NCBI RefSeq assembly: GCF_030684315.1
Contig: NC_081391.1
Location: 14,237,342 to 14,301,341, forward strand
Origin: Stegostoma tigrinum
Taxonomy: Eukaryota
Length of the DNA stretch: 64,000 nucleotides
Reading direction: 5' to 3'
The notes beneath the pieces are model-generated. The model made no database searches and was not told the origin of the DNA. It saw nothing but the letters and a program-made list of their open reading frames with translations. The position numbers were made by a program, and so were the translations under genes. This document shows, one piece after another, positions 5,788-31,731 of this stretch; positions within the stretch are counted from its first letter, which is position 1; each line of letters opens with the position of its first letter.

Positions 5788-8700
5788 ATGGCCTCCCAGA
5801 TCAGTCAGAACTATCACCAGGATTGTGAAGCTGCTGTCAACAAGCAGATTAATGTGGAGCTCACTGCCTCCTATCTCTATCAGTCTTTGGTGAGTGTTGT
5901 GTTTATGAGGTTAAAATTCAATCTATTATTCTGAAGTGAGCTATTTCCCTTGTTTCTAACTAACTTGATGCCCTTGTAGATTGTGTTTCATATCTCTTAC
6001 CTATTGAACACATCAGGAGGAATGTGATGTTATCATATCAGTGGGCTATGATCCTGATGTACAGTCATGGTGGACCCTGTCAGTCTTCAATGATCTCTGG
6101 AGGGAGAAGTGTTTTGTTTTTGACTTAGTTCAAAATTCCCTGATAAGGTTATGCCTGGCAGTAATTGTCACTCCCTCACTAGGATTATCAAAAAGTTCAT
6201 CTAATTTCTGAAGGAACTGGAATAACCATTGGCTAGTTACTGGCTTCTGTTTTTAATTTCTTGCTTTCTGTTTATTTAGTGATGCATGTCATTGAACAAC
6301 ATGCTGACTTGGTATAGTAGTAAGGCATTATGGTAGCACTTTCCAATTAATCAAATCTGATCTGACACAGCCTTCAGGGTTTGGGTGTGACTATTAGCAG
6401 CTCAAATAGGCCTTGTTGGGGGCCTACTGGGCTTTGTGATCATTATTGAGATGGGTGTGGCCCTTCCCTTCACACTTGACATGAAGTTCATCTGCTGTGG
6501 TGTGTGAAGTGAGACGCTGGTGCTCCTGGAATGTGCTGAAGGTATTGCCTCAGTGACAGTGATGAAATGGATTGTTCCCAGACCATCTATCCTGGCCCTG
6601 AAACACACTGGCCCCTCAGACCAGGTGGCAGTGTGCCTGTGCCCTTCTAAGGGATAGACTGTGTTTGGAAGGTGTGTGTTTGAAGTAACCTTGGTGACTG
6701 CTGCAGGGGACCTGGTAGATAATGGACCCTGAAAGGAGGTGGTGAATGCAGTCCCCATGAAGTGGGCTGCTCAGTCTTGGATGGTGTCTGCTTCTTGCAT
6801 GTTGTAGCTCCCCTTCTACTGACAAATGGGGAATATTCATCTCTCTCTGGGCTTGTGCCTATTGGAAGGAAGCTGCCTCGATATAAGGATGGAGTCAGTA
6901 TAACCTCCATTTGGGAGGTGGGAACAGCTTTTACTGGGGAACCACTTGGGGTTTAATCACTGGCCAGTGTCCCAGCACAACAGGGAATTATGTACCAATC
7001 AATAAATCCCCACTATTCTGTCTTCCACAACTTGGAACTACCCAATTAAACCATACTTTTTTTTGCCTCACTTTGTATTTGAGGGTTGAAGTAGCTTTTC
7101 ACATCAGGATTCCTTGCTTATAGCAGCACTCATGCATCAGCTTCTGAACAAACATCTAATAGATGACTCACTTCTACTTCAACTGAAGCTGTAGCCCTCC
7201 AATGTTGAATTGTGAATGTCAGTTTTAGACGTGAGTGATTATGGGTGGGGAAAATTACAGCATTTTGCATGTTCAACTTAGCTAAATGAAGGTTTCCAGC
7301 AGTGTGTTTACTGGTGACATTATCCATAGAACAACAGTTGATCTAGAGATCACATTGTCTGTCTCCAACATTTGACTTTTCTTCAGTTTGTTCTTACAAT
7401 TTGTTTTATCAGTGTGATGCTTGTTTGCGAGCTTCTGGATGTGAGTGCACTCAATAAACAGGTGTGTAATAGCCTTCTGCGGCAATGATCCAAAGGCTGT
7501 TACTGGGCAGGCTTTCCTCATCAGAATCTTGGTGCCACTTTCTCCTCCATGCTGCAGACAGCATGTCCTGTAGCACTAAAATATATGGTACATCTAATGC
7601 CATTAATCTTGAGGTTGCAGAACTTGCTTCCCCCTAGTTCGACTGTTAGAGTAGTGCTCAACATCAGTATTGAGAAACCAAGGTCGGGAGATGGATGAAC
7701 ACAGCAGGCCAAACAGGAAATCTGACACTGGGCTAACATATGTATGCCACCTTAGCCCCAAAGGAGAAATGCGGTGCCTTGCAGCTGCCACCCTGAGTCC
7801 ATTCTGCATACCAGCTCCTGGCACAAGGTTAAAAACTTAGTCCATCACTAGTTTCATTCAATCCTGATGAGTGTTCAACAGAGGAAACATGAATTCAATT
7901 TTTCCCTCTCAATGCTGTGCCAGACCCCTTGAGCATTGCATTAGGTATCTTAAACCAAAACACATGGTATGCACATCCTCCCTGGAGGAAGCTGGGTTTG
8001 TTCAGATTGAGCCAGTTAAAGGATCATCTGGCTAATTGGACAACACTAGGTTCATGACCACAGTCATGTACCAGAACATAACAGCTCGTGGCATTCTAGA
8101 GCAAACTGACAATTCTCAACCGGTCATCAATTTCTGAGATCTACAATTGGCCCCAGTGGTCCCTTTAATGAGATTTGAAATGTTGTCTCTTCCAGATGTC
8201 CTATTTTGACCGGGATGACGTTGCCCTCCCCCATTTCTCGCGGTTCTTCAAAGATCAGTCCCAGCAGAAGCGGGAACATGCAGAGAAGCTGCTGAAATTC
8301 CAGAATCAGCGTGGAGGCAGAGTCCTCCTCCAGGATGTGAAGGTTGGAGTTTGGTTTGGGTGAGGGTGTGTGGTTACAGGTGAAAAATGGCAGCTCTCAT
8401 GGTGAGGCTTCAAGTCAGTGACGAGGACTTCACGTCCTGATGGGAAGTGACAAATATCTTGTTCTGTTTGGGTCCCCTGTGTCCTGACTCTGAATACAAC
8501 AAATCACAGAAACAAGCCCTCTGCCCACCATGTCTATGCTGACACACCAAATGACACTTTGCTGCACTTGGTCCACAGACTACTCTGCCCTGGCATGAAG
8601 TACTTGGCTAGATGTTGCTGGAGTGGCTGTCTCTTCCATATTTCTACCATCCTCTGGTCGGGGTGGGAGCAGGGGTGAGGGAGGACACTTCCTCTAACCT

Positions 8701-10001
8701 GTTGATTCCTCAAACCTGTGCCCTCTGGTATTGGTGCCTGCTATGGTGAAGACCTCTGTCTTTCCATATTCCAATTGCCTCAGCCTCACCACCTCCAAGG
8801 AAAATCGCAGCTTCTGGATCCTGTCTTCAATGGATTTTCAGTCTTGAGGCAAAATCCTAGTATTCCTCACCTGCGGCCCCTCCAGTGCCATCCTGTCCCT
8901 CTGATTTTCGGTTCTGGTCACCACCCTGCATTCCATCCTTGGCCTGGCTCACGTTGCAAAGCTTGGTACAAGACTGAGCTCTATATTGAGCCCCAACTGA
9001 AGGGGACGAGCATCATGTCAGCCACCTTCACCAGCCTGTCTACCTTCACTGAGCCTTGAGCTATCTATGGTCTGGATGTTGTTATCTTAGTTCCTTTTAT
9101 TCTAAAAGCTTTGCTGGCCCTTCAATGAACTAAGTTGCAGTGATGTTTCTCATCCTGCTCATGAGGAGGAGGACATGGCCTCGCGGTATTATTGATGAAC
9201 TGCCAGTCATCGGTCTGAATGTCCTGTGGCCATGCTGCAGGAATGCTGTTGCTGAAGCTTAACTGTCCTTCTTTTCCCTCCTCCAGAAGCCAGACAGGGA
9301 TGAGTGGGGTAACAGCCTGCAGGCAATGCAGGTTGCCCTGAATCTGGAGAAGAATGTGAACCAGAGTTTGCTGGATCTACACCAACTCGCCACAGCCCAG
9401 ACTGACCCTCATGTAAGCTTCACCTCCTCCTCATTCTCATCACTGCGACACCCTCAGGGCAACACGTCATTGGTTGGTCTTTGTGTGGTTTTGAAATTCA
9501 CTGCTGTAACACTGTCTGGCTGACATTGGGCCTGAAGTGATCATGCTGAGGATCTGTTCAGCAGTTGTTCAAATGGGAATTTGGATCATTATCTGGAAGG
9601 AGCGTTGAACTGATACTTGCCACTGAATTCTCATTTAGTATCATTGTCCATCACAATCCACCTCCACTCCATTTCACAAACAGCAAGATGGAGCAGCTGA
9701 AATCCTCTTGTCCTCACTGGCACAAATTCTCCAGGTGCTGGCTTGATTTTTCAAGGCTGTTGAGAGCGGGTATGGTGAAATGTTTTGCAGTGGAAATTCT
9801 GAAGTTGTTTTTAAGTGATCACAGTTTCTCTTTCTTCCATTGCAGCTGTGTGACTTCCTGGAGACTCACTATTTGGATGAGGAGGTGGAGATCATCAAGC
9901 AACTTGGGGACTACATCACCAACCTGAAGCGCCTGGGAGCCCCTGAGAATGGGATGGGAGAGTACCTGTTTGACAGGCTCTCCCTGGAGGACAGCAGTTA
10001 G
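5788..10001 (+). CDS. Ferritin subunit, copy F2 (intact, 176 aa, 4 exons)
   Basis: Exons 5788-5889, 8196-8342, 9287-9412 and 9846-10001, all GT-AG, 531 nt. [65 protein letters not shown].../KPDRDEWG...[18 protein letters not shown]... aligns to vertebrate ferritin with the standard exon structure. AATAAA at 10128-10133. Confidence 0.96.
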
Positions 10002-10504
10002 TGTGGCCTGGAGAACTGTCTGCTTGGTCTGAATGCATTCCCCACTTCACCCTGGGCAATCTGTCTCCTTTCAGGGAGAAGGGGCTTGTCGCAAAGAATG
10101 TAATGGCTGTACCAGCTGAATGGAATGAATAAAATGATGCATTGATCTTGCTTATTGTCCCTCATTCAGATTATTAAATATTTTGGGAGATGTCACTTGA
10201 GCTTTAAGTCTGTTTATCTTTCTCTAATTTGGCTGATCCAATTAGTAAATGGACTCAGCAAAACTTCTAGGTCTTACCCCAGCCCCTGAATGTTGGAAAG
10301 TAGCAAGATGGAGTTCCTTGTTGTGGTCCCAATGAAATTCAAGATATTCTCCTCAAATAGGTTAAGTTGGGGGTTTGTGAATTGTGGGGTGGCACTTCTT
10401 CTGGAGGACAACTGGCACATTTCTGGCTACGGGCCATTCGGATCATTAAAATCTGCATTGACACTGTGAACAGCATCATGTTCAGATCTTCCCCCCCCTG
10501 CCCC

Positions 10505-11090
10505 CACATTTCCCATGGCTAATTTACCCAGACTGTATGACCCCTTGTCACTATTGGCAATTTAGCACGGCCAGTACACCTACTCCACATGTTGTTTGAC
10601 TGTGGTGGGAGACTGGAACAGGTGAAGGAAATCCACACAGACATGAGGCAAATGTACAAACTCTGCTCAGACAGTTTTTCCCCCAGGCTAGAATCAACCT
10701 TGGGCTCCTGGTGTGGTGAGGTAACAGTGCTAACCGCTGAGGCCCCTTCACCCCCTAAAGTACCAAACAAAGGAGGAGGCTGTTGCAAAGTCAGAGCCAT
10801 CCAGCTTGGAAATAGACTCTGAAGCACAACACGTCCTTGCTGACCACGTTTCCACAAATTGTGTCGTGCTACTTGCTGTCCAAATCCCTCTTAAACAGTT
10901 AAATCCCTCTAAATCGTTCCATCCCATATACATGTCCAAAGTCTTGAAATTGCACCCAAACCTATCGTTTGTGTTGGCAACTTCTTCCAGACACGCACCA
11001 CCCTCTGTGAAAACGTTCCCCCTCAGTCCCTTTTAAATCTTTTCCCCTCTCCCCTCAAACCGATGCCCTCTAGTTTTGGACTCCTCCTAC
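10505..11090 (-). mobile_element. Spacer module: HE1-like SINE plus CR1 3'-end fragment
   Basis: Paralogous to 3740-4305. Confidence 0.65.
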
Positions 11091-11545
11091 CCTGTCCTCG
11101 CATGCTTTTTATATACAGTCGATCTTGAGTGTGCCAAGGGATAGGCAACATTTTGTGTTCAGCAACTGTTACACTTCAGGAGGTGGTGATTACAGTCCAC
11201 CTGGTGTGGGAGAGTCCGGAATGATGCTGCTGCTGAGGAGGGGCTTCTAGGATTTTCATTCTCAAACAGGGATAGTGGTCCTGGCGATAGATTTACTTCA
11301 AGCTGCTTGAGTGAGGTAGGGGCTGCACTGAGCCAGAAAATTCTGAACCGTTCCATAAATATTCATTAACACATCCTGACCCCAATGTTATACATGGTGG
11401 ACAGGCTTTGGAAAGTCAAAAGTTGAATACTTTGGAACAGAGTTCCCAGCCTGTGACCTACCAGTTTCTGAGCTGTATGTTCAGCAGAATGCAATGTAAA
11501 CAGCACCAGACACTCTCTGCTCAGAAACAGACTGGAGTTAAGCGC

Positions 11546-11746
11546 TAACACGGTGGAGCTGGATGAACACAGCAGGCCAGGAAGCATCAGAGGATCAGGA
11601 AAAGCTGATGATTCAGATAGGGACCCTTCTTCAGTAAAGGAAGATTCAGCACATTTCTGAAGAAGCTTCCTGACCCGAAACATCAGCTTTCCTGTTCCTC
11701 TGATGCTGCCTGGCCTGCTGTGTGCATCCAGTTCCACATTGTGTTA
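11546..11746. repeat. About 200-bp palindromic element (Penelope-like terminal-repeat remnant)
   Basis: The left arm TAACACGGTGGAGCTGGATGAACACAGCAGGCCAGGAAGCATCAGAGG is the near reverse complement of the right arm CCTCTGATGCTGCCTGGCCTGCTGTGTGCATCCAGTTCCACATTGTGTTA. Confidence 0.8.
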
Positions 11747-12737
11747 TCTCTGACTCCAGCAACAGCAGTTCTTACTATCCGTGAGGAAGTTCAGCACTGG
11801 TCATCCTCGAAGTGATTAAAAACTGAACACGGAGATAAAAGTGCTGAACGTGCAGTATAATTCTCACAGCTATCTCCTGGTCCATTTACGTATAGAGCCT
11901 GAGGCCTGTTGTGTGTCTGAGACACTCAGCACCTTTCGCATTTTGATTTTTCAATCTGGCCTACTCAGATCCACAGTCGACGAGATCTCGGCAGATTCAG
12001 AATGGATCCACGATGTACATCAGTTGTCTGTACTAAATGGTCCGAAAGCACATGGATTCTGTTGCTGTAGCTCAATAGGAAAATGTTTACTGTTGACAAA
12101 ATCTGGCCATTTCTCACTGGGCTCCAACACTGTCGTTCAAAAGGTACAAAGACTAATCCCTCAGAGTAACAAACTGACAGAATTCAGCAAATCTGTGATG
12201 AGTGTTTATTAAGAAATAGCCTCAGATACAAAAGTGAAGTTTTAGAGTGTATTTTATTCTCATTTTCAGGGAGATGTACTTCCAGAATTTGCACTTGTGC
12301 AGGAGGTCAATCAGCAATTCCATCATCGACCAGTTGTCAATTCTGTGCTTCCTCAGACCCAAGTCCAAACAGATCACAATAGATACAGAATGAATCCACG
12401 AAGTAGATTGTTTTTCTGTATTAAATGGTCCAAAAGCATATGGGCTCCGTTGATGCACAGCAATGGGAAAATTTTACTGTTAACAAAACCTAGTCATTTT
12501 TCAATCGGCTACAAATCTATGATTCAAAACCGACAGAACTCAGCAAATCTGTGATGAGCGTGTCTTAACACATAACCTCAGATACAAAGGTAAAGGTTCA
12601 GAGTCTATTTTATTCTCATTTTCAGGGAGATGTACTTCCAGAATTTGTACTTATGCTGGAGGTCAAAGGTCATTCCGCAATTCCATCATCGACCAGTTGT
12701 CAATTCTGAGCATTTTCTGGATCCAATTCCCATCCTG

Positions 12738-12845
12738 CACTGATTGGACGTGGCAGCTGATCAACTGATTAACAAGAGTGATTGGCCATCACTGATGATG
12801 TCATTTCCTGCTTCATAAAATGATGGTCTGCATTGGGGTATAAAT
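12738..12845 (+). promoter_or_regulatory. Putative core promoter of F3
   Basis: Two ATTGG, TGATGTCATTTCCTG (CRE-like plus ETS-like), CATAAAA, and TATAAAT at 12839. Confidence 0.65.
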
Positions 12846-12941
12846 AATGTCCTAAGAGAGTGATGTTTTAGGTGTAGTTGGTTTTCTTTCCAAGTTTGTT
12901 GTTTTGTTGTGCTGGGTTAGGAAAGCTGTTTGTGTCACAAG

Positions 12942-15900
12942 ATGGCCTCCCAGATCAGTCAGAACTATCACCAGGATTGTGAAGCTGCTGTCAACAAGCA
13001 GATTAATGTGGAGCTCACTGCCTCCTATCTCTATCAGTCTTTGGTGAGTGCTGTCCCTGTGGTGTTGGAGTTAAATCTGTTATGGTTAAGTCAACAGTTT
13101 TTCTTGTTTGTAACTAACTTGGAACTACTGTAGATCGTGTTTTATATTTCTCTCCTATTTAAACACCAGGAGAAATCTAATGCTATTAGAAAAATGTGGT
13201 ATGACACTGATATACAGTAACTGGGCCCCTATTGACTTTCAGTGACTGCCTGGTGGGTGAAGTGCTTTGTGAAATACATCTTGTAATTCACTGTCAGGAT
13301 TGTGACTGGCAGTAACTGTCACTATCTCTGAAGATTATGATAACTCAACAGTACTTTAGAAAGAAGATAACTGAGCGTGGGGCTGGATAAACACAACAGG
13401 CCAAGCAGCATCTCAGGAGCATAAAAGCTGATGTTTTGTGCCTGGACCCTTCGTGCTGCTTGTCCTGCTGTGTTCATCCTGCCTGATGCTTTGTTTTCTT
13501 GGATTCTCCAGCTTTTGCTGTTCCCATTATTTGAGTCTTTTAGAAAGAAGCTGGGATAACCATTAGTTCATTAGCCTCCTGTTCTAATGTGTCCTGGTGT
13601 ATCTGTTTTGTCTTGTGATGCATCTGAACAAACCAGGGTTATATTTCCTGCTGGAGAAAGGTGTCATAGTGACTGTCCAGAATAACCAAATCTGATTGGC
13701 CTCAGCCTTCAGGGTTGGGCTGTGACTCCCTGCCTGTTCAAATAGGTTTCCAGTGAGGCCTGTTTGGCTTTTTGCTCTCCATGAGGTGGGTGTGACCCAT
13801 TCTCTCTGAACCTACAGACAATTGATCTGCTGTAGTGTGCTATATTGGAGACTCCTGGGTCTACAGGAATGTGCTGAGCTTGTTGAGCCAGTGAAGCAAG
13901 GCTTTTCCCATACCACCTCTCCTGGTCTGAAACAAGCCTGCCCCTTTCACCAGCTGGTGGTGTGCCTGTGCCCTTCCAAGGGGGAGAATATGTTTGGAAG
14001 GTGAGAGCTGCAGCGGACCTAGTAGATAATGGACCCTGAAAGGAGGTGGTGAATGCAGTCCCCATGAAGTGGGCTGCTCTGTCCTGGATGGTGTCTGCTT
14101 CTTGCATGTTGTAGCTCCACTTCTCCAGACACATGGAGAATATTCATCACTCACTGGGCTTGTGCCGGTTGGAAGGAAGTAGTTTCCAATGACATGAGGA
14201 TCAAGTCCCTGTAAGCCCACTTTGTGAGATAGGAACAGCTTTTCCTGCTGAACTAGGTGGGTTTTAATCACTGGCCAGTGTGCCTACTCAACAAGAATTG
14301 TGCTAATATAAAATCCTCACTGTTCTTCACATGTCACATCATGTAACAACCCAGTTATATCACACTGTAATCCACCAAGGCAAATCGTCAAGAGCAACTT
14401 CTCACCAGGTTTCTTCCCTCCAGAACAATCCTCATCTGCTTTATGAAGCAGCCAATCAAGTGTTCACTGTTATTCCAGCTTGTTATTCAAGTGTGAGACT
14501 CAGTTTAGAATGAGTGCAAGGGGTGGGTCAGGTCTAGAATTTGACCTGTACAAATGGGTCAAATCAGGTTTTCCAGCTTCATGTTAACGAGTGACATGAT
14601 CTGCAGAACAATAGTTCATCTAAAGGTCTCTCTGACCTTGCTTCAGTTTGTTTTAAGCAGTGATGTTTGTTTGCAAGCTTCGGAATGTGAGTGTGCTACA
14701 TAAATGGGTGTAGTAGCCTATTGCAGTAACAACCCAATGGCTGTCACTGGGCAGGATTTCCTTTGCAGAATCTTGGTTCCACTTTTGCTCTTTCTCCTCC
14801 TCCCATAATGCCAACAGCATCTCTTGCAGAGCTATCATCCAATCCGATTGATCTCCAGGTTGTAGAAGACTCGCTCCCTCCTGGCTATATTATTACAGCA
14901 GTGCCCAGTGTCTGTATGTTACTTTAGCCCCAAAGGAGAAATGTCGGGTCGTGCAGCTGCCCCACCCTGAGACCATCCTGCGCACCAACTCCTGGCCATT
15001 CCTCCAATTCTGTGACATCCATCAGTGGAAACATGAATTCAGCTTTTCTCAGCATACGCTGTGCCAGACCACCCCCACCCTGAGCAATTTGATAGTGCTT
15101 TCAAACCCAAACAGGGTATCTGCAGGAAGCTGGGTTTGTCTAGATTGACCCAGTGAACAGATCTGCCGTCAAATTGAACCACACTAGGTTCACAGGCCAA
15201 TTTTGTGTAGCCACACTTTGACAGCTGGCCGAACCTTCAGTTTGCTTTTGAAGGATAAACCAGGTCTGCAGTTCTGAACTATATTCAGGCCCAGTGGTAC
15301 ATTTTAATGGGCTTTAACTTGTTCCCTCTCCCTTCCAGATGTCCTACTTTGACCGGGATGATGTTGCCCTCCCTCGTTTCTCCCAGTTCTTCAAAGATCA
15401 GTCCCAGCAGAAGCGGGAACATGCAGAGAAGCTGCTGAAATTCCAGAATCAGCGTGGAGGCAGTGTCCTCCTCCAAGATGTGAAGGTTGGAGTTGGGAAG
15501 AGATGGTTGGGTAGGGTGAGGTTTCAAGTCAATGACCAGCATGTCTCACACTGAAAAGTGAGACATGCTACCATTTTGGCTTCCCAGTTTCTCCTGAAAT
15601 ACCAGAAATCCCACAAACAAGCCCTTTGGCCCACCATGTCTATGCTGACCCAAGAAACACCCAACCACATTAATCCCATCAACCTGCACTTGGACTGCAG
15701 CCCACAATGAGGTGGCATTAAGTAGTTGTCCAGATGTTGCTGGAGTAGCTGCCTTCAATCGGGTGTTGCATTTCACAAACCTACTTGTGTTTTTTAGGAG
15801 GAGTTGGAGGTGGTGGGTTTCTCCAACCTGGAGCCTCACTTGCACCCCCTCCAGTGTTTATCCTGTCCCTGTGATTGTGGTTCTGGTCACCACACTGGCC

Positions 15901-17375
15901 AGGTCAAAGATGGAAGACAATGCTGCCTAGTTTCTGACCAGACGTGGGCCACCCAATAGGGACAGGCATCATGTAGGCCAACTTCACCCTCTGGTTGACC
16001 TTTGCTGATCCTTGAGAGGTCAATGGTCTTGGGCACTTTGGTATCTCTGCTCCTTACCATTAAAAACCCTGCTGTCCCTTGAATGAATCCAACAGTCATG
16101 TTTCTGATCCTGCTGATCAGACAGGGATGAAACAACAAGCAGAGGTGGGACTTCAACCTGGTCCCTGTGTCCCAGACACAGGGACAGTACCACAGAACCA
16201 AGAGCCCTTGGGATTAGGCTGTGCATGTCCTGATCTAAACTCCAGCAGATGGACACTGGTGTAATCCACACCAGGGTGCAAATTCAATCCTTATCCCCAT
16301 GATGACATGGTCCTGGACTTCCTCATTCAGATCAAGGATAAATGGGGCAAGGTGAAAGCAGTTCCCAAGTAACTTTGATCTTCATGTGCACCTCAGGGAT
16401 GGCACAGTGGCTCAGTGATCAGCACTGCTGCCTCAGTGCCAGGGACCCAGGTTTGGTTCTGGCCTTGGGTGAATGATTGGAATTCACATTTCTCCTTGCA
16501 TGGGTTTCCTCCCACAGTCCAATGATGTGCTGGTTAGGAGGATAGGTCATGGGAAGTGAGGGGTTGCAGAATTGGGTGGGAGTCTTTTCAGGGGGTATTG
16601 ATGGTCTCAATGGGCTGAATGGCCTGCTCCCATGCTGCAGGGATTCTGTTTCTGAAGATTAACTGTACTTCTTTCCATCCTCAGAAGCCAGAGAGGGATG
16701 AGTGGGGTAACAGCCTGCAGGCAATGCAGGTTGCCCTGGATCTGGAGAAGAATGTGAACCAGTGTTTGCTGGATCTACACCAACTCGCCACAGCCCAGAC
16801 TGACCCTCATGTAAGCTTCACCTCCTCCTCATTCTCATCACTGCTGGACCCTCAGGGCAACACTTCATTGGTTGGTCTTTGTGGTTTGGAAATTCACTGC
16901 TGAAACAGTCTTTGTCTGGATATGACATTGCTATCACTGTATTCACTCCAGGTACAATGTCACAACTGCTCAGCCATGAGTGACATGGGGAATTTGGGTT
17001 ATAATCTAGTGGGAGTGCTGAAGTGATATTGGCCACTGAATTCCCATTCGGGGCAACTCGAGTTGAAATACTCGTGTCCTCACTGGCACAAATTCTCCAG
17101 CTATCGGCTGCACTTTGAGGACTGTCTGGAGTTAGTTATGGCTGAGTCTCTTGCAGTGGGAATTCTGAAATTGTCCTGTGCCATGTTAATGCACAAGTTG
17201 TCATATTCCTCTGTTGCAGCTGTGTGACTTCCTGGAGACCCACTATTTGGATCAGGAGGTGGAGATCATCAAGCAACTTGGGGACTACATCACCAACCTG
17301 AAGCGCCTGGGAGCCCCTGAGAATGGGATGGGAGAGTACCTGTTTGACAGGCTCTCCCTGGAGGACAGCAGTTAG
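12942..17375 (+). CDS. Ferritin subunit, copy F3 (intact, 176 aa)
   Basis: Exons 12942-13043, 15339-15485, 16685-16810 and 17220-17375, with canonical splice sites and an open frame. Variants include GGSV, NQCLL and LDQEV. AATAAA at 17503-17508. Confidence 0.95.
16396..16650 (+). mobile_element. HE1-like SINE in intron 2 of F3
   Basis: Paralogous to 899-1160. Confidence 0.7.
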
Positions 17376-18950
17376 TGTGGCCTGGAGTACTGTCTGCTTG
17401 GTCTGAATGCATTCCCCACTTCACCCTGGACAACCTGTCTCCTTCCAGGGAGAAGGGGCTTGGAGCAAAGAATGTACTGGCTGCACCAGCTGAATGAAAA
17501 TGAATAAAATCATGTGTTGATCTTGCTTATTGCCCATCATTCAGAGCCCTGTATAATTTTGGTAGTTATCCTGAGAGCTTCCAGCATTTAATTTTTCTGC
17601 AGTTTGATTTTGCTGATCAAATTACTAATTGGGCTAAACATCTCATTGGTTCTGTCCTCTGTCAGACAGGGATTACAAGAGGAGGTTGCTCTGGCCTGTG
17701 AATCAATGATATTCCTCCAAGCAGAACTTGAGGATATTGGGGTTTTGTCGGGTGGAACTTGCTCTTTGCAGTTGTGTTTTTATAAAATTACGTTTCTGGA
17801 TGTGATGCATACAATGGGAGGGGGGGAAAATCTTCCCTTTTACGGGAGGGGAGTTCTCCTGCTCTATACAAGGGAAGACGAGATACCCAGTCTCATGAAT
17901 ATCTGACAACCCTGTTTCCACGTTCACCTAGTCTGTCAAAGAGCTTAGCTTTTTCCCCCCTCCCCACATGCAAAGATTTATTGCTGATGTGAAAGGAAAA
18001 TGCCAATTTGAAGACAAAGCTAAGTGAGCTGGTACTGCAATAGTTGCTGTTACTGTAGGCCTAAACATGGAGGTGGTGGGATGAGCTCATTGGGCAACAA
18101 TGCCATCTTTCTTGGGCAGGGGAGAATACAATGACAGTAAATGGTCCTGGCACTGTTAGGATTCACCTATAGATGCAGAGCTAAGGGTCAAACCAGCCCT
18201 GGGACATGCACTATTGGTTGTGGGTTTTCCCTTTTTTTTTTTCCCTTCCACACTCACCCACCAGAGCCTCCCCTGATCCTGCCGTTAGCAATTGGGCAGG
18301 TTCGCCAGCTCATGCCTCCTTCGTCTGAGATAAATATGCTGGTCCTACTGGTCGCTTTGATTCACTACCCACTGCAATCAGGGAGTCAATCCCCCATCGG
18401 GCCATGTTTCCCAGAAGCATCCCAAAGTTGTCCTGATGTGGCTTAGTCATTCCTGTTTTCTTTGCCTGTTTATAGGATTCACTCCAACAACCAGTCACTT
18501 CAGAATCAGCACATTGTCTGCCATCTACAGCAGGAGAGGAGTGGCCTGGGAGTAACGCAGCAACGCTCATGGTGACATGCTGCTGTTTGATTGGCTCTTG
18601 CTGTGAAAGCCAGCACTGAGTGCACTCAGCTGCTCCCTACGTTCCTCTGAGCTTCTCCTGTGCTGCAGGTTGCCTTCTCCCAGTGATGGAGAACGAGCAG
18701 CGATTTTCTGTTCAACTTGGGAATGATGTGACTTAGGGGAGGTAACCTGGACCTGCATACCATCCTGTACGGCTGTTTACTTCAGCATTTGAGCTGTCAG
18801 TGACGTTCTGGGGATTACCACTGCGTTTTGCAGCTCCTGTGCAATACAGCCTATGTAGGGGGCATGGTTCTTATGTGACTCAACATATCTGTTACATGAC
18901 AGAAATCCTTTTTATTTTGACCAATCTTCATTCTTGGCGATGGTGTCCCT

Positions 18951-21434
18951 CGTAGACCATAAGACATAGGAGTGGAAGTAAGGCCGTACAGCCCATCAAG
19001 ACCACTTCCCCATTTAAATCATGGCTGATGGGCATTTCAACTCCACTTCCCTGCACTCTTTCCCCCTAGCCCATGATTCCTTATGAGATCAAGAATTTGT
19101 CGATCTCTGCCTTGAACGCATCCAACGTCCCGGCCTCCGCTGCACTCTGTGGCAATGAATTCCACAAGCGAACCACTCTCTGGCTGAAGAAATGTCATCT
19201 CATTTCGGTTTTAAATTGACCCCCTCTAATTTTAAGGCTGTGCCCACGGGTCCTAGTCTCCCCGCCTCACGGAAACAACTTCCGAGCGACCACTTGTAAA
19301 CCATACATTATCTTATAAGTTTCTATTAGATTTCCCCCTCAAACTTCTAAACTCAAATGAGTACAGGATCCTTAGCCGTCCATCATACATTAAACTTAAT
19401 ATTCCTAGGGATCATCTGTCTGAATCTCCACTGGACACGCTCCAGGGCTAGTATGTCCTTCCTGAGGTGTGGGGCCCAAAATTGGACACAGTACTCTAAA
19501 TGGGGCCTAACTAGAGCTTTATAAAGCCTCAGAAGCCCTTCACTGCTTTTATATTCCAACCCTCGAGAGAAATGACAACATTACATTCACTTTGTTAATT
19601 ACGGACTCTACCTGCAAGTTAACCTTCAGAGAATCCAGCACCAACACTCCCCGATCCCTTTGTACTTCTGCTTTGCGAATTTTCTCACCATTTAGAAAAT
19701 AGTCCATGCCTGTATTCTTTTTCCCAAAGTGCAAAACCTCACCTTTACTCACATTGAATTTCATCAGCCATTTCCTGGACCGCTCTCCTAAACTATCTAA
19801 ATCTTTCTGCAGCTTCCCCACCTCCGCAGACTACCTGCTATTCCACCTATCTTCGTATCATCGGCAAACTTCGCCAGAATGCCCCCAGTCCCTTCATCCA
19901 GATCATTAATATACAAGGTGAACAGTTGCGGCCCCAACACTCAACCCTGCAGGACACCACTCGTCACCGGTGGCCGTTCCGAAAAAGAGCCTTTTATCCC
20001 AACTCTCTGCCTTCTGTCAGACAGCCAACCATCAATCCAAGCCAGTAGCTCACCTCGAACACCATGGGCCCTCACCTTGCTCAGCAGCCTCCCGTGAGGC
20101 ACTGTATCAAAGGCCTTTTCGAAGTCTACACAGATAACATCTACTGGGTTTCCCTGGTCTAACATACTTGTTACCTCTTCAAAGAATTCTAACAGGTTTG
20201 TCAGGCACGACCTCCCCTTACTAAATTCATGCTGACTTGTCCTAATCTGACCTTGCACTTCCAGGAATTTAGAAATCTCATCGTTGACAATGGATTCTAG
20301 AATTTTACCAACTACCGAGGTTAGGCTAATCGGCCGAAAATTTTCCATCTTTTGCCTTGATCCTTTCTCAAACAAGGGGGTCACAACAGCAATTTTCCAA
20401 TCACCTTGGACTTTCCCCTGACTCCAGTGACTTTTGAAAGATCACAACCAAAGTCTCCACTATTTCCTCAGCCACCTCCCTCAGAACTCTAGGATGTAGC
20501 CCATCGGGGCCAGGAGATTTATTAATTTTTAGACCTTTTAGCTTTTCTAGCACTTTCTCTTTTGTAATGCCTACCATACTCAACTCTGCCCCCTGACTCT
20601 CCCTAATTGTTGGCATACTACTCACGTCTTCCACTGTGAAGACTGACGCAAAGTACTTATTAAGTCCCTCAGCTATTTCCTTATCTCCCATCACTAGCTT
20701 CCAGCATCATTTAGGAGCGGCCCAATGTCTACTTTTGCCTCTCGTTTGTTTCTTATGTATTGAAAGAAGCTTTTACTATCATTTCTAATATTACTAGCTA
20801 GCCTACCTTCATATTTCATCCTCTCCTTCCTTCTTGCTCTCTTTGTTATCCTCTGTCTGTTTTTGGAGCCTTCCCAATCTCCTGATTTCCCAGTGCTCTT
20901 GGCCACTTTATGGGCTGTCTCTTTTTCTTTGATATATTTCCTGACTTCCTTTGTCAGCCATGGCTGTCTAATCCCACCCCGGATAATCTTTCTTTTCTTT
21001 GGGATGAACCTCTGTACTGTGTCCTCAATTATACCCAGAAACTCCTGCCATTGTTGCTCTGCTGTCTTCCCCGCTCGGCTCTGCTTCCAGTCGATTTTCG
21101 TCAATTCCTCTCTCATGCCACTGTAATTACCTTTATTTAACTGTTACACCATTACATCCGATTTTGCCTTCTCTCTTTCAAACTGCAGACTGAACTCGAC
21201 CATATTATGATCGCTGCCTTCTAAGTGTTCCCTTACTTTAAGGTCTTTTACAAAGTCTGGCTCATCACATAACACTAAGTCCATAATAGACTGCTCCCAT
21301 GTGGGCTCCATCACAAGCTGTTCCAAAAAGCCATCCTGCAGACACTCCATGAAGACCCTTTCTTTGGGTCCACTGGCAACATTATTCACCCAGTCCACCT
21401 GCATATTGAAGTCCCCATGATCACCGTGACGTTG
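18951..21434 (-). mobile_element. 5'-truncated CR1-clade LINE (ORF2: end of APE endonuclease plus RT), frameshifted
   Basis: Collinear minus-strand ORF pieces 21144-21404 (GSDHN), 20694-21116, 20401-20694 (KSPGPDGLHPRVL), 19941-20384 (FRPISLTSVVGK, DFEKAFD, SGVLQG) and 19549-19821. AKFADDTK lies near 19850-19875. The 3' tail reads CCTATGTCTTATGGTCTA at about 18953-18970. Confidence 0.93.
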
Positions 21435-21524
21435 CCTGTTGTCCAGGATGAGGCCATTTGGCCCGTGGAGGATTGAATCTCTTCACCCCATCCTGTTCAG
21501 ACCCACCCCATTCCCTTAACGCTG

Positions 21525-22100
21525 TGTTTCCCATGGCTAATCCAGCTCGCCACTTGTCACTGTCAGCAATTTAGCACTGCCTAAACACTTAACCTGCAAA
21601 TCGTTGCACTGTGGGAGAAAACAAGAACATGGGAGACATGGGAAGAATATGCAAGACCCAGACAGACAGTTCCTGAAGGCTGTAATGGAACACAGGTCTC
21701 TGGCGCTGGGAGGTAACCGTGCGAACCACTGAGCTACCATCACACCCTAATGTACCAAACAAAGGAATATGCTGATGCATTCTATGAGAGTCATTGAGTC
21801 ATACAGCCTGAAAACAGACCCTTCAGCCCAACCTGTCCATGCCGACCACGTTTCCGTAACTGAATGAGTCCCACTTGCCCACGTTTGGCCCATATCCCTC
21901 GAAACTATTCCTATAAATGTAAATCTCTAAATGTCTCTTCAACGTTGTAATTGTACCCACTTCTACCACTTCCTCTGGCAGCTCATTCCATATACACATC
22001 AACCTATCAGCGAAAAAGTTGTCCCTCAACAAGTTCTCCTTTTCGAATCTTTCCCCTCTCCTCTCAAACCAATGCCATCTAGTTTTGGACTCCCCTACCC
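21525..22100 (-). mobile_element. Spacer module: HE1-like SINE plus CR1 3'-end fragment
   Basis: ORF 21823-22032 (IWNELPEEVVEVGTITTLKRHL) and a SINE head at about 21700-21748. Confidence 0.72.
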
Positions 22101-23381
22101 TGTCCCAGCATGCCTTTTATATAAAGTCAATCTTGAGTGTGCCAATGGCAAGGCTACATTTAGTGCTCAGCAACTGTTACACTTCAGGAGGTGGTGATGA
22201 GCTGCTTATTACTGTCCACCTGGTGTAGCAGAGCCCGGAATGATGCTGCTGCCGCTGCTGAGGAGGGGCTTCTGGGATGTTCATTCACAAACAGGGATAG
22301 TGTTCCAAGTCAGGATGGTGACAGATTTACATGGAGCTGCTTGAGTGTCGTTGAGGCTGTCTTGAGCCAGAACATTGTAAAGTCATCCATCACACTTCCT
22401 AACTTCAGTCTTGTTGATGGTGGACAGGCTTTGGAAAGTCAGGAGTTGAGTGATTCACAAAAGAATTCCCAGCCTCTTCCCACATTCTGAGCTGTTTGTT
22501 CTACAGAGTGCAATGTAAACAGGACCAGAACCTCCCGAATAGAAACACGCTGCAGTTAAGCGCTTGTTGTCCTCGGAGCAGGTAAAAGCTGAACACAGAA
22601 ATAGAAATATTGAATGTGCGATATATTTCCAGCACCTGATACCTCAGCAGTTTAGCTGGCAAAATCAGCCCATTTCTGAAGAAGGGTCCCAACCCAAAAA
22701 GTCAGCCTTCCTGCTCCTCTGAAGCTGCCCAGCCTGCTGTTGCCCTCCAGCTCCACGCTGTCTTATCTCTGACTCCAGTGTTGACAGTTCTTACTACCTC
22801 TGAGGGAGTTAAGTGCTCGTCATTCTTGAACTGACTAAAAACTGAACACTGAGATAAAAATGCTGAACATGGAATATATTTCTAGCAGCTGTCACATGGG
22901 CTATTTGGGTATAGACCCTGAGGCCTACTCCCACACAGCACATTTTCGAATTTGATTTTCAAACTGGACTTACTACGATCCAAAGTCAACGAGATCCTGG
23001 CAGATTCTGAATGGATCCACAGCCTGTAGGTACCTGTATTATATGGCCCAAAAGCACATGAATTCTGTTGCTGCACACCAACAGGAAAATGTTTGCTGTC
23101 AACAAAATCTTGCCACTTTTCAATGGGCTCCAACACCGTCGTTCAAAAGGTACAAAGACAAACCCCTCAGAGTAACAAACCGACAGAATTCAGCAAATCT
23201 GTGATGAGCGAGTCTTAGCACATAACCTCAGATACAGAAGTTTCAGAGTATGTTTTTTGCCATTTTCAGGGAGATGTCCTTCCAGAATTTGCACTTGTGC
23301 AGGAGGTCAAAGGCCATTCAGCAATTCCATCATCGACCAGGTGTCAATTCTGATCAGTTTCTGGATCCAATTCCCATCCTG

Positions 23382-23490
23382 CACTGATTGGATGTGGCAA
23401 CTGATCAATTGATGAACAAGAGTGATTGGCCATCACTGATGATGTCATTTCCTGCTCAATAAAATGAGGACATTCAAGTGAGGTATAAAT
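23382..23490 (+). promoter_or_regulatory. Putative core promoter of F4
   Basis: Same motif block, with TATAAAT at 23484. Confidence 0.65.
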
Positions 23491-23590
23491 AGTGTCTCCA
23501 CGCGACTGATGTTTTTGGTGTAGTTGGTTTTCTTTCTAAGTTTGTTCTTTGTTTGTGAGGAAAAAGGAAAGCCCCTTTTCTCCTCATAAA

Positions 23591-26500
23591 ATGGCCTCCC
23601 AGATTAGTCAAAACTATCACCAGGATTGTGAAGCTGCTGTCAACAAGCAGATTAATGTGGAGCTCACTGCCTCCTATCTCTATCAGTCTTTGGTGAGTGT
23701 TGTGTTTGTGAGGTTAAAATTCAATCTATTGTTCTGAAGTGAGCTATTTCCCTTGTAGATTGTGTTTCATATCTCTTACCTATTGAACACATCAGGAGAA
23801 ATGTGATGTTATCATATCAGTGGGCTATGATCCTGATGTACAGTCATGGTGGACCCTGTTGGTCTTCAATGATCTCTGGAGGGTGAAGTGTTTTTTTTGA
23901 CTTAATTCAAAATTCCCTGCTAAGACTATGCCTGGCAGTAATTGTCACTCCCTCACTAAGATTATCAAAAAGTCATCTAATTTCTGAAGGAACTGGAATA
24001 ACCATTGGCTAGTTACTGGCTTCTGTTTTTCACTTCTTGCTTTCTGTTTATTTAGTGATGCATGTCATTGAACAACATGCTGACTTAGTCTAGTAGTAAG
24101 GCATTGTGGTAGTTCTTTCCAATTAACCAAATCTGATCTGACACAGCCTTCAGGGTTTGGGTGTGACTGTTACCAGCTCAAATAGGCCTTGTTGGGGGCC
24201 TACTGGGCTTTGTGATCATTATTGAGATGGGTGTGGCCCTTCCCATAACACTTGACACGAAGTTGATCTGCTGTGGTGTGTGAAGTGAGACGCTGGTGCT
24301 TCTGGAATGTGCTGAAGGTATTGCCCCAGTGACAGTGATGAAATGGATTGTTCCCAGACCAACTATCCTGGTCCTGAAACACACTGGCCCCTTAGACCAG
24401 GTGGCAGAGTGCCTGTGCCTGTCTAAGGGGTAGAATGTGTTTGGAAGTTGTGTTGAAGTAACCTTGGTGAGTGCTGCAGGGGACCTGGTAGATAATGGAC
24501 CCTGAAAGGAGGTGGTGAATGTAGTCCCCATGAAGTGGGCTACTCTGTCCTGGATGGTGTCTGCTTCTTGCAGCTCCCCTTCTACAGACACAGGGGGAAT
24601 ATTCATCTCTCTCTGGGCTTGTGCCTATGGGAAGGAAGTTGCCCTGATGTAAGGATGGAGTCAGTATAACCTCCATTTGGGAGGTGGGAACAGCTTTTAC
24701 TGGTGAACCAGTTGGGGTTTAATCACTGGCCAGTGTCCCAGCACAACAGGGAATTGTGTACCAATCAATAAGTCCCCACTATTCTGTCTTCTGCAACTTT
24801 GAGCTACCCAATTAAACCATACTTTTTTGCCTCACTTTGTATTTGAGGGTTGAAGTAGCTTTTCCCACCAGGTTGCCAGCAGTGTGTTTACTGGTGACAT
24901 TATCCATAGAACAAGAGTTGATCTAGAGATCAATTGTCTGTCTCCAACATTTGACTTTTCTTCAGTTTGTTCTTACAATTTGTTTTATCGGTGTGATTCT
25001 TGTTTGCAAGCTTCTGGATGTGAGTGCACTCAATAAACAGGTGTGTAATAGCCTTCTGCGGCCACAATCCAAAGGCTGTAACTGGGCAGGCTTTCCTCAC
25101 CAGAATCTTGGTGCCACTTTCTCCTCCATGCTGCAGACAGCATGTCCTTAGCGCTAAAATATATGGTACATCTAATGCCATTAGTCTTGTGGTTGCACAA
25201 CTTGCTTCCTCCTGATTGTCCTGTTCGAGTAGTGCTCAACATCTCTATTAAGAGATACCAAGGTCGGGAGATGTTTGAGCGCAGCAGGCCAAACAGGAAA
25301 TCTGACACTATGGGCTAACATTTGTTTGCCACCTTCTCCCCAAAGGAGAAATGCAGTGCCTTGCAGCTGCCCCACCCTGAGTCCATTCTGCATATCAGCT
25401 CCTGGCACTCGGTTAAAATGTTAGTCCATCCCTAGTTTCATTCAATCCTGATGAGTGTTCAACAAAGGAAACATGAATTCAAGTTTACTCTCTTAATGCT
25501 GTGCCAGACCCCCTGAGCATTGTACTGTGTATCTTAAACCAAAACACATGGTATGCACATCCTCCCTGGAGGACGCTGGGTTTGTTCAGATTGATCCCGT
25601 TCAAGGATCATCTGGCTAATTGGACAACACTAGGTTCATGACCACAGTAATGTACCAGGACATAACAGCTCGTGGCATTCTGGATCAAACTGACAATTCT
25701 AAACCAGCCATCAATTTCTGAGATCTACAACTGGCTCCAGTGGAGCATTTAATGGGATTTGACATGTTCTCTCTTCCAGATGTCCTATTTTGACCGGGAT
25801 GACGTTGCCCTCCCCCATTTCTCCCGCTTCTTCAAAGATCAGTCCCAGGAGAAGCGGGAACATGCAGAAAAGCTGCTGAAATTCCAGAATCGGCGTGGAG
25901 GCCGAGTCCTCCTCCAGGATGTGAAGGTTGGAGTTTGGTTTGGGTGAGGGTGGGTGGTGACAGGTGAAAAATGTCAGCTCTCATGGTGAGGTTGCAAGTC
26001 AGTGACGAGGACTTCACATCCTGATGGGAAGTGACAAATATGTTCTTCTGTTTGGGTTCCCTGTGTCCTGACTCTCTGAATTCAACAAATCACAGAAACA
26101 AGCCCTTTGCCCAACATGTCTATGCTGACCCACCAAATGACATTTTGCTGCACTTGGTCTACAGGCTACTCTGCCCTGGCATGAAGTACTTGGCTAGATG
26201 TTGCTAGAGTGGCTGTCTCATCCATATTTCTACCATCCTCTGGTCGGGTTTGGGGCAGGGGTGAGGGAGGACACTTCCTCAAACCTGTGCCCTCTGGTCT
26301 TGGTGCCTGCCATGGCAAAGACCTCTGTCCTTCCATCTTCCAACTGCCTCAGCCTCACAACCTCCAAGGAAAATCCCAGCTTCTGGAACCTGTCTTCAAT
26401 GGATTTTCAGTCTTGAGGCAACATCCAGTATTCCTCACCTGCAGCCCTTCCAGTGCCATCCTGTCCCTCGGATTTGGGGTTCTGGTCACCACCCTGCATT

Positions 26501-28344
26501 CTGTCCTTGGCCTGGCTCATGTTGCAAAGCTTGGTACAAGACTGAGCTCTATACTGTGCCCCAACTGAAGGGGACAAGCATCATGTCAGCCACCTTCACC
26601 AGCCTGTCTACCTTCACTGAGCCTTGAGCTATCTGTGGTCTGGATGTTGTTATCTTAGTTCCTTTTATTCTAAAAGCTTTGCTGGCCCTTCAATGAACTA
26701 AGTTGCAGTGATGTTTCTCATCCTCCTCATGAGGAGGAGGACATGGCCTCGCGGTATTATTGATGAACTGCTAGTCAGACCCAGGCCATGTTATCCAGTC
26801 GCATGTTTGAATCCTGCCACGGCAGGTGGAGTTTTGACTCCACTTAAATAATCTGGAAATAAGAACCGAATGATGACCATGAATCCATTGATTGTCAGAA
26901 ACTCATGAGGCTCAATATCCTTGTTTAGGGAAGTAAATTTTATCTCGTCTGAACTACATGTGACTCCACACACAGCAATGTGGTTGACTCTTTATTGCCC
27001 TCTGCAGAATTAGGGATGGGCAATACATGTTGCCTGGTCAGCAAGCCCTCTCCAAATCCCACCAATAAAGGGGACATGGAATGCTGCCATCAGCACAGGT
27101 GGGACTTCACCCTGGGCCTTGTGCTCCAGATGCAGGGACACTACCATGGTACCACAAAAGGCCTTGGGAATTAGGGTGTGACTGTCCCGCTTGGAATTCC
27201 ATCAGAGGGACACCAGTACAAACCACTTTGTGCCAATTTAATCCTCCCCACAATGACCTGTTCCTGAGCTTCATGCTTCAGATCCAGGATAAACAGCAAA
27301 GTGAAAGCAATTCAAATAACTGTTCCTCATCTGGGCTTCAGCGACAGAATCGTTGCTCAGTGGTTCGCACTGCTGCCTCAGTGCCAGGGACACAGGTTGG
27401 ATCTGGTCTCTGGTGGCTGTTTGGAACTTACACACCCACCCTCCATGGGTTACCTCCCACAGTCCAATGATCGCCAACTCGAACCTGGATATGGGAAATG
27501 CAGACCCACATGAAAAAGGTGAGTGGAATTGGGTGGGATACTAAGGTAGTAGTTGGTCTCAATGGGCTGAATGGCCTGCTGCAGGAATGCTGTTGCTGAA
27601 GCTTACCTGTCCTTCTTCCTCTCTTCCAGAAGCCAGAGAGGGATGAGTGGGGTAACAGCCTGCAGGCAATGCAGGTTGCCCTGGATCTGGAGAAAAATGT
27701 GAACCAGAGTTTGCTGGATCTACACCAACTTGCCACTGCCCAGACTGACCCTCATGTAAGTTTATCACCTCATTCTCATCGCCGCTAGACACTCAGGGCA
27801 ACACCTCATTGGTTGGTCTTTGTGTGGTGTGGAAATTCACTGCTGTAACACTTAGCCTGGCTGACATTGGGCCTGAAGTGATCATGCTGAGGGTCTGTTC
27901 AGCAGTTGTTTAAAATGGGAATTTGGATTATTATCTGGAAGGAGCGTTGAACTGATACTGGCCACTGAATTCTCGTTTAGTATCATTGTCTGTCAAAATC
28001 CACTTCCACTCCATTTCACAAACAGCAAGATGGAGCAGCTGAAATCCTCTTGTCCTCACTGGCACAAATTCTCCAGGTGCTGGCTTGATTTTTCAAGGCT
28101 GTTGAGAGCGGCTATGGTGAAATAATTTGCAGTGGGAATTCTGAAGTTGTCTTTAATAGTGATCGCAATTTCTCTTCTTCCATTGCAGCTGTGTGACTTC
28201 TTGGAGACTCAATATTTGGATGAGGAGGTGAGGATCATCAAGCAACTCGGGGACTACATCACCAACCTGAAGCGCCTGGGAGCCCCTGAGAATGGGATGG
28301 GAGAGTACCTGTTTGACAGGCTCTTCCTGGAGGACAGCAGTTAG
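23591..28344 (+). CDS. Ferritin subunit, copy F4 (intact, 176 aa)
   Basis: Exons 23591-23692, 25780-25926, 27630-27755 and 28189-28344, with canonical splice sites. Variants include [20 protein letters not shown] and [15 protein letters not shown] at 28472-28477. Confidence 0.95.
26735..27060 (+). mobile_element. Deu-domain (SacSINE1-like) SINE in intron 2 of F4
   Basis: Motifs CTACATGTGACTCCA...CACAGCAATGTGGTTGACTCT...GCCCTCTG...AATTAGGGATGGGCAATA resemble the recalled shark DeuSINE consensus. Only the head survives in F2 (about 9165-9205). Confidence 0.6.
27340..27590 (+). mobile_element. Degenerate HE1-like SINE in intron 2 of F4
   Basis: GCTCAGTGGTTCGCACTGCTGCCTCAGTGCCAGGGAC head and GGGCTGAATGGCCTG tail. 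Confidence 0.6.
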
Positions 28345-29844
28345 TGTGGCCTGGAGTACTGTCTGCTTGGTCTGAATGCATTCCCCACTTCACACTGGCC
28401 AACCTGTCTCCTTCCAGGGAGAAGGCGCTTGTAGCAAAGAATGTAATGGCTGTACCAGCTGAATGGGAATGAATAAAATGATGTGTTGATCTTGCCTGTT
28501 GTCCATCATTCAGAGACCTGTATAATTTTGGTAGTTATTCTGAAAGATTGAAGCATTTCAGTTTTCTACTGTTTCACTGGCTGTTCAAATTCTTAATTGG
28601 GCTAAACATTTCCTTGTTTCTACGCTCAATCCAATCCATACTCTGTCAGACAGGGATACCAAGAGCAAGTCGCTCTGACCTATCAAATCAATGATATTCC
28701 TCCAACCGGAACTTGAGGATATTGGGTTTGACGGGTGCAACTTGCTCTTCACTGTTTTCTGTTTTTTTGTCAAAAAAAATTACACTTCTGGATGCGATGT
28801 ATACATTGGCAGGAAAAAAAAACTCCCTTTTTGGGAAAGGGAGTTCTCCTGCTCTGCCTAAGGGAAGAGGAGACACCCAGTCTCAGGATTATCTGACAGT
28901 CCTCTTTCCACATTCAGCTTGTCTGTCAAAAGCTTTTGCTCACCCCTCCCCCTACTAAATGGTACTAGCACCCTCAATATTCACCTGCAGGTGTGGCTTT
29001 GGGTTATTGGGATGAGCTAAGGTTCAAACCAACCTTGGGACATGTACTATTGGTGGTGGGGGGTTTTTTCCCTGTTTTTTCCTTCCCCACTCACCCACCT
29101 GCCGTGAGCAATTGGGGATGTTGGCCAGCTCGTGCCTCCTTTGTCTGAGATAAATATGCTGGTCCTACTGGCCACTTTGATTCACTACCCACTGCAATCA
29201 GGGAGTCAATCCCCTGTCGGGGCATGTTTCCAATAAACAACCCCAAGTTGTCCTGATGTGGCTTGTTCATTCCTCTCTTCTTTGCCTGTTTATAGGATTC
29301 TCTCCAACAAACAGCCACTTCAGAATCAGCACGTTGTCTCATTGCCACCTACAGCAGGAGAGGAGTGGCCTGGGAATAACACAGCAACACTCATGGTTAC
29401 ATGCTGCTGTTTGATTGGCTCTTGCTGCTACAGTCAGCATTCAGCTGCTCCCTACGTTCCTCTGAGCTTCCCCTGTGCTGCACGTTGCCTTGACCCAGTG
29501 ATGGTGAACGAGCAGTGATTTCTGTTCAACTTGGGAATGGTGTGACTGAGGGAGGAAACCTGGAGCTGCATACCATCCTGTACGGCTGTTTACTTTATCG
29601 TTCGAGCTGTCACAAATTCTGGGGATTACCTCTGATTTTCGCAGCTCCTGTGCAATGTAGCCTTTGTAGAGGGCATGGTTCTTATGTGACTGAACATATC
29701 TGTTACATGACAGAAATCCTTTTAATTTGGAGCAATCTTAATTCTTGTCAATAAGTCCCTATTGTCCAGGAAGCAGCCATTTGGCCAGTGCAGCGTCGAC
29801 ACTCTACACCCCATCCTGTTCAGACCCACTCCATTCCCTTAACA

Positions 29845-31632: not shown

Positions 31633-31731
31633 TAATGCCCCAAGGAGGTTATGTTTTCTTGTCTTGTTGATCTTGGTTCTAAATTGGTCACTTTTGTAGT
31701 GAAGAGAGTCAAACAAACTCCTCATCACAAG

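Follow-up and report, generated by a model that had tools for sequence, protein, structure and literature searches.

Large tandem clusters of ferritin genes have been described in sharks. For the Greenland shark, a preprint reports 155 copies labelled FTL and 179 labelled FTH1, which are shared with the great white shark, and ovary-specific expression of the largest cluster (bioRxiv 10.1101/2024.09.09.611499; this and the other papers are cited from excerpts of their text). Growing oocytes of teleosts are rich in ferritin mRNA, as described for coho fth3 (PMC2262088) and for the zebrafish follicle (PMC1488847). Egg-associated ferritins with a 5′ untranslated region (UTR) lacking an iron-responsive element (IRE; for background on IREs and the iron regulatory proteins, IRPs, see PMC11719527) occur in snails, as yolk ferritin (PMC10799875), and in Schistosoma (from a title cited in PMC1488847), and the mammalian FTHL17 family is germ-cell-biased, multi-copy in mouse and devoid of ferroxidase activity by Glu62Lys (PMC7760355). 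Both the expansion and the ovarian expression have been published for other sharks, and egg ferritins without an IRE have precedents. Here, we analyze a stretch of 64,000 nucleotides (nt) from Stegostoma tigrinum (NC_081391.1, positions 14,237,342 to 14,301,341; the window), with a focus on the ferritin gene starting at position 12942 and on a 12-nt sequence in its promoter region, TTTCCTGCTTCA, that resembles one arm of an IRE. We suggest, with a probability of roughly 0.7, that the data are best explained overall by a 167-copy ferritin array without IREs that is driven by transcription and likely ovarian, and in which the 12-mer is likely a promoter site.

The window lies within a tandem ferritin array (array A) of 167 exon-1 copies, all on one strand, that covers 1.42 Mb of contig C50. 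A second array (array B), located ~55 kb from an IRE-bearing, M-like ferritin gene (C50:21.609 Mb), comprises at least 150 exon-1 hits on both strands at C50:19.95–21.55 Mb and on the unplaced contig G000:C216 (loci L189-L238; 150 of 419 candidates were scored). More than 100 tandem copies in two ancient classes are thus found here, as in the Greenland and great white shark clusters, where more than 100 tandem copies per class, mostly full-length and ancient, form two classes in one region and are reported to be ovary-specific. In contrast, the excerpts on teleost ovarian ferritins describe no array this large and do not state the IRE status. Under a strict test, 112 of the 164 complete array A copies are intact; 82 distinct proteins are encoded, and the ratio of non-synonymous to synonymous differences (pN/pS) is 0.28 (600 pairs from 96 distinct coding sequences). 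Within the window, five of the eight copies pass the test; the three broken ones, all with the exact 12-mer, show an exon-2 indel (31732), an exon-3 indel (38519) or an ATG-to-TTG change (47244), and the copy at 62437 extends past the window edge. The closest named relatives of the 12942 gene are labelled Stegostoma tigrinum, with those of bamboo, epaulette and other sharks next. In contigs from four putative-RNA runs of two related organisms, the four exons are spliced together at GT..AG junctions; these contigs are colinear with the gene over 9 nt before the ATG, and spliced contigs were seen for both array classes in the runs of the two relatives. Expression of array A in the ovary is likely, by analogy with the published clusters.

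In the numbering of human H ferritin, by which ferroxidase residues are conventionally denoted, the full H/M ferroxidase set (E27, Y34, E61, E62, H65, E107, Q141) is not present in array A, as all 112 intact copies carry E62K and Q141E, with E27 and E107 retained. The presence of both substitutions throughout the intact copies suggests that array A proteins are probably ferroxidase-dead. E62K by itself abolishes ferroxidase activity in FTHL17 (PMC7760355). That family differs from array A in comprising six genes rather than 167 and in being X-linked and partly nuclear, and the shark genes keep three introns. FTHL17 is an intronless retrocopy and is not known to have an IRE. Snail yolk ferritin is secreted and has a signal peptide and a 42-residue insert, whereas the shark chains are of a plain cytosolic type with 176 residues. 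In array B, for which 30 loci were sampled for promoters and 18 exon-1 hits for the protein motif (partly overlapping sets), most sampled copies keep an EEREH motif, with variants at the R, E and H positions. Many array B copies stop short at ...DRLTLS. In a tree of 35 rows and 176 residues, in which a few splice-junction residues are off by one in the H and long-N rows, array A and array B proteins each form a clade (support 98/100 and 99/99, respectively), both with Heptranchias members. While the Greenland shark classes are labelled FTL and FTH1, the two classes analyzed here form separate shark clades, whose parentage the tree does not place; a grouping with tetrapod L was assessed with a single L-labelled row on a poorly resolved backbone. 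Intron-2 donors, GTTGG/GTTAG in both arrays and three neighboring genes and GTTAAG in FTH1, were rejected as a parentage marker, the signal being too weak.

A preliminary description of the window had noted the lack of a CAGTGN-loop hairpin in eight TATA-to-ATG intervals. This observation was borne out and extends to all 167 leaders. A genome search with Rfam RF00037, in which 82 of ~1.5 million candidates were scored, revealed two IREs, each in a single-copy gene, one in an FTH1-like gene on C20 and the other in the M-like gene. Both of these control loci were detected in a scan that found Rfam IRE_I in none of 18 array loci (8 of array A, 10 of array B). No Rfam family reached its gathering score anywhere in the window, and between 12500 and 13100 no IRE appeared even at E ≤ 10; a "bantam" match in this interval (E 1) was discarded as chance. 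Scanning 1.55 Mb with the canonical pattern C-N5-CAGWGH-N5 revealed 14 sites with a full upper stem, of which 11 also have some lower stem; of these 11, only two are in sense orientation, each 2351 nt upstream of an ATG, and no canonical IRE is located in any of the 167 leaders. A loop-agnostic scan recovered both control IREs and yielded, in array A, only four-of-five stems with non-canonical loops (13 of 167 copies) and, in array B, imperfect stems with other loops (2 of 30 loci). Ten of the 167 copies, every one without the normal promoter, have a CAGWGH at most 105 nt from the ATG. Folding of the 12846–12941 leader is unremarkable (z −0.53), and a conserved leader hairpin was rejected based on mean z-scores of −0.6 and −0.4 for 19 leaders each of arrays A and B. 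A 13-base IRE-core pattern, with 226 genome matches, was uninformative. The proposed escape of the array from IRP control is thus well supported at the sequence level, and array A leaders very probably lack a working IRE. The output of such leaders would likely depend on transcription and copy number and not on IRPs.

An IRE might instead have decayed in place inside the leader, around 12877–12925, in the register of the M-like gene IRE and without any shift of the start site, a scenario that is compatible with the explanation we favor but that we consider unlikely. TTCTT is found 43–47 nt past the TATA box not only in the M-like gene but also in some array A and some array B copies, GGAATAG is common to array B leaders and the 3′ end of the IRE, and array B is a close neighbor of the M-like gene. 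In addition, a test anchored on the leader register gave p 0.048 for array A and 0.043 for array B, with non-significant controls (FTH1, 0.77 and 0.68; a neighbor gene, 0.54 and 0.16). However, the comparison was post hoc and concerns T-rich sequence, a profile test gave p 0.075 for both arrays, and the anchored and profile tests are not independent (subtype 1, which has no TATA box, was excluded from the former, subtype 32 from the latter). Moreover, the array A and array B consensus leaders no longer align with each other (p ~0.5), and their mean folding z-scores, given above, are only slightly below zero.

The preliminary description had also equated the 12-mer with the 5′ arm of the human FTH1 IRE and noted that TAAAATG follows, with no pairing 3′ arm. 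Indeed, the 12-mer and the FTH1 IRE of this genome have 11 consecutive bases of the 5′ arm in common, which makes the resemblance a real one that does not rest on the human sequence. The site differs from the Rfam RF00037 IRE in having no CAGWGN loop (TAAAAT comes after the arm), no 3′ arm, no IRE fold and no Rfam score, and in its position 24 nt upstream of the TATA box and 138 nt from the ATG, although the RNA contigs do not define a transcription start. The exact 12-mer occurs at six window sites (12804, 31591, 38376, 47106, 54993 and 62307), corresponding to six of the eight exon-1 copies, and in 98 of 167 copies across array A. This repetition is due to gene duplication and does not represent independent recurrence.

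From this resemblance, the preliminary description had proposed, as a possibility, IRE decay combined with a start-site shift. In such a scenario, a new TATA box would have arisen 3′ of an H-type IRE, whose 5′ arm remained upstream and was later retained as a promoter site. The best local alignment of the 12942 promoter with the FTH1 IRE, the 11 bases plus a gapped extension, scores 23, a value reached by 0.7% of 1000 promoter shuffles and by 2 of 1102 background segments (p 0.007 and 0.002, respectively; 0.9% of background segments score at least 22 with either IRE). The distance to the ATG is comparable to the 108 and 132 nt of the two IREs, and the downstream flank aligns with that of FTH1 at p 0.083. 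However, no significant match to the 12-mer region was obtained with the M-like gene IRE from the same contig (p 0.11–0.22), among seven array B promoters there was a single nominal match (p 0.03) at a different place, and positions 12795–12850 show no IRE-like fold (z +0.98, compared to −2.5 for the two real IREs). With the IREs masked, nothing aligned to either IRE-bearing leader (p 0.27–0.69), and the upstream flank gave p 0.8–1.0; the lack of colinear flanks with either canonical leader counts against a relic. Furthermore, while TTCCTGCT is present in 20 of 20 leader subtypes (partly through row selection), the TTCA tail is found in just 11, and the conserved unit continues 5′ into sequence without a counterpart in the IRE leaders. 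The homologous site in array B (TCCCTGGTTGA, TCCCTCGTTGA or TTCCTGTTGGA) is not IRE-like. We therefore regard an origin of the 12-mer by decay and start-site shift as quite unlikely.

Instead, the 12-mer is likely part of a conserved DNA-binding site, predicted to be of the ETS-CRE (CRE, cAMP response element) type. Mean identity among 20 leader subtypes is 88% in an 82-nt module that ends in the site, compared to 58% in the leader, 61% in intron 1 and 96% in exon 1. Within this module, CAT.TCCTG is present in 149 of 167 copies; the 18 copies without it were excluded from the subtype, homology and leader-alignment comparisons, so that 8 positions of the motif are fixed there by the selection of copies. 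The promoters of arrays A and B are homologous (15 of 15 pairs at p ≤ 0.01), and the array B element is located 30–31 nt before its TATA box. As both protein clades include Heptranchias members, the module must be very old. Given an old module and leaders that have diverged, a passively decaying RNA element could not have persisted, and only use at the DNA level would explain the 11 bases. On the minus strand, GCAGGAAATGACATCA is identical to an ETS-CRE composite, (C/G)CGGAAGTGACGTCA (PMC3464117), at 12 of 15 bases, with equal overlap and spacing and a like position in the proximal promoter; it differs by three substitutions through which both CpGs are lost, and binding is a prediction. GGAA overlapping TGACGTCA at the fixed spacing was found in array A only. 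GABP peaks have been reported at CAGGAAGT (PMC4555227). The fallback idea of the preliminary description, a coincidental ETS site, was thus closer to the mark as regards the ETS-CRE spacing.

A promoter element seeded by a retroelement bearing a 21-base unit in tandem appears very improbable to us, even though the site is closer to a repeat that has no relation to IREs (20 of 21 bases identical) than to the IRE itself. A 17-base pattern of the site has 141 exact genome matches including the array, compared to none for a reversed control, and 70 of the first 100 matches listed lie off the array contig; this word therefore occurs in the genome without an IRE nearby. All 20 sampled regions belong to one repeat family, which also matches one array B copy at 20 of 22 bases and which is putatively Penelope-like, with a weak profile match of GIY-YIG type (E 0.034). 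However, the similarity stops at the 21-mer, no repeat copy is located in the array region, and the repeat open reading frame (ORF) has no match in Pfam. In addition, the repeat copies are 83–98% alike and thus probably much younger than the split between arrays A and B, and convergence on one factor site, or chance, would account equally well for the match. Rfam returned nothing in three repeat loci. The repeat loci (L239-L258) are interspersed, often as inverted pairs, and contain tandem 21-base units and the end of a GIY-YIG-like ORF.

Finally, IRP control retained via an upstream exon or a non-canonical IRE appears highly improbable to us. In its favor, two putative-RNA contigs of relatives have 107 and 151 nt unaligned 5′ of 12933, longer than the ~75-nt predicted leader, and 6 of 167 copies, of the type of the 12942 copy, have a weak C-bulge hairpin with the loop TAGGAA 24 nt before the ATG (with a mismatch beside the loop and a competing alternative fold). 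However, no conserved IRE-like hairpin exists on the sense strand across 1.55 Mb, the colinearity before the ATG in contigs from all four runs indicates no splice at the ATG, only 110 of 167 copies have an AG directly before the ATG, and the nearest IRE found by Rfam lies 7.2 Mb off on the opposite strand.

We therefore favor the explanation of an IRE-less, transcription-driven and likely ovarian array, with the 12-mer as a likely promoter site. Several observations weigh against it. Besides the unaligned contig ends, the TAGGAA hairpin and the fraction of candidates scored in the genome-wide IRE search, these are the match of the 12942 copy to the FTH1 IRE, which is beyond typical chance (p 0.002–0.007) but was chosen post hoc, and the anchored flank alignments to the IRE leaders, whose p values of 0.08–1.0 come with low power (positive control, only p 0.067). 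Moreover, most of the array B copies sampled have a changed ETS GGA core, and many array A copies have TGATCTCA as their CRE half, with G in 63% of the 167, so that the bound factor is uncertain and its identity a prediction. The ovarian expression is taken from another shark, and the backbone of the ferritin tree is too weakly supported to place the arrays in the H or M lineage.

Table 1. Features of the 12942 ferritin gene, its promoter region and the remaining array A copies in the window
Feature	Positions	Strand	Remarks
Distal inverted CCAAT box (ATTGG)	12743..12747	-	Columns 90-97% conserved in 167 copies; ATTGG also in array B promoters; putative function
Candidate E-box CAGCTG	12754..12759	.	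Central G conserved in only 70%
Proximal inverted CCAAT box (ATTGG)	12781..12785	-	Every base in 17-20 of 20 subtypes
GCAGGAAATGACATCA: CRE-like TGACATCA overlapping ETS-like CAGGAAAT	12796..12811	-	Predicted ETS-CRE composite
12-mer of the preliminary description, TTTCCTGCTTCA	12804..12815	+	11 bases identical to this genome's FTH1 IRE (5′ arm); lacks loop and 3′ arm
TATA box TATAAAT	12839..12845	+	103 nt before ATG; 79-95% conserved per column; putative role in start-site choice
TATA-to-ATG interval, predicted 5′ leader of ~75 nt	12846..12941	+	T/G-rich, fast-evolving, no IRE
Weak alternative IRE-relic candidate (TTCTT...GGAAAG)	12877..12925	+	TATA register with IRE of M-like gene
Ferritin exon 1	12942..13043	+	ATG at 12942; GT..AG joint 13042>15338 in putative-RNA contigs of relatives
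Ferritin exon 2	15339..15485	+	Lys at human H position 62
Ferritin exon 3	16685..16810	+	
Ferritin exon 4 and stop	17220..17375	+	Glu at human H position 141
Seven further array A copies	5788..64000	+	Exon 1 at 5788, 23591, 31732, 38519, 47244, 55134, 62437

The features are compiled in Table 1. E-boxes are linked to oocyte promoters, a link for which our literature search on oocyte promoter elements returned nothing. Further observations concern the organization of array A. Copies of the 12942 type have a local duplication of ~400 bases 5′ of the promoter (window positions 11948–12711 and 61451–62211). Identical promoters recur among array A copies, often ~15 copies apart (G000:C50:13.0–14.15 Mb), suggesting recent duplications of multi-gene blocks, or assembly duplication, within the array. 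In copies 20, 36, 43, 49, 60, 69, 80, 91, 95, 106, 113, 119, 127, 137 and 161, the near-ATG promoter is swapped for a repeat insertion or a C-rich tract, and the final copies, 166 and 167, have GATGTCATT and a TATA-like box without TTCCTGCTTCA. Two other ferritin genes were seen. One (L050:1489-1776, plus strand) contains introns, adjoins the IRE-bearing M-like gene and has a GC-rich promoter, in which no IRE arm was found; its product carries a basic, acid-free N-terminal extension of ~60 residues (MGSLWRLLPGRCRLLLV...), like a mitochondrial presequence. The other (L183, ~G000:C50:21580355, minus strand) is a single-copy gene encoding MDHNIRLNY...; its ferroxidase motif reads DKEREQ, and its promoter has a TATA box but no IRE arm.

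Based on these results, a mechanism can be envisaged in which the promoter, composed of CCAAT boxes, the ETS/CRE site and the TATA box, would start transcription ~30 nt past the TATA box in oocytes. With the short, unregulated leader, oocytes could then synthesize ferritin in advance of the iron supply and irrespective of it. Ferroxidase-deficient array A chains, in an L-like role, might co-assemble with ferroxidase-competent array B chains in an H-like role, and the mixed shells would store iron for the egg. On this basis, we tentatively put forward, as a possibility to which we assign somewhat less than even odds, that sharks have an egg-dedicated second ferritin system of two arrays with more than 300 genes, which would have shed IRE control, retained an ancient common promoter module and re-evolved an H/L split independently of tetrapod L. 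Oocytes might thereby produce heteropolymer ferritin in bulk without any coupling to iron sensing.

Shark ferritin expansions have so far been reported without a regulatory or catalytic reading. Neither "IRE" nor "iron" occurs in the text of the Greenland shark preprint, from whose excerpts IRE loss, the E62K/Q141E split and a shared promoter are likewise absent, and ferritin, FTH, ferroptosis and iron are all absent from the text of bioRxiv 10.1101/2025.02.19.638963. Our literature search, whose coverage left out most subscription papers, did not turn up any publication that deals with IREs in the ferritin clusters of sharks, nor any description of array-wide IRE loss, of the catalytic split or of the shared promoter.

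The supposed relic 5′ of the TATA box adds little to this picture, as it is likely a promoter site. If hundreds of IRE-free genes in catalytic and non-catalytic classes indeed share one promoter, the shark expansions would look less like a general device against oxidation or for longevity than like a maternal system for iron storage or yolk protein. An unusually large vertebrate array would then join the egg and germ-line ferritins without IREs, such as snail yolk ferritin and FTHL17-like chains with E62K.

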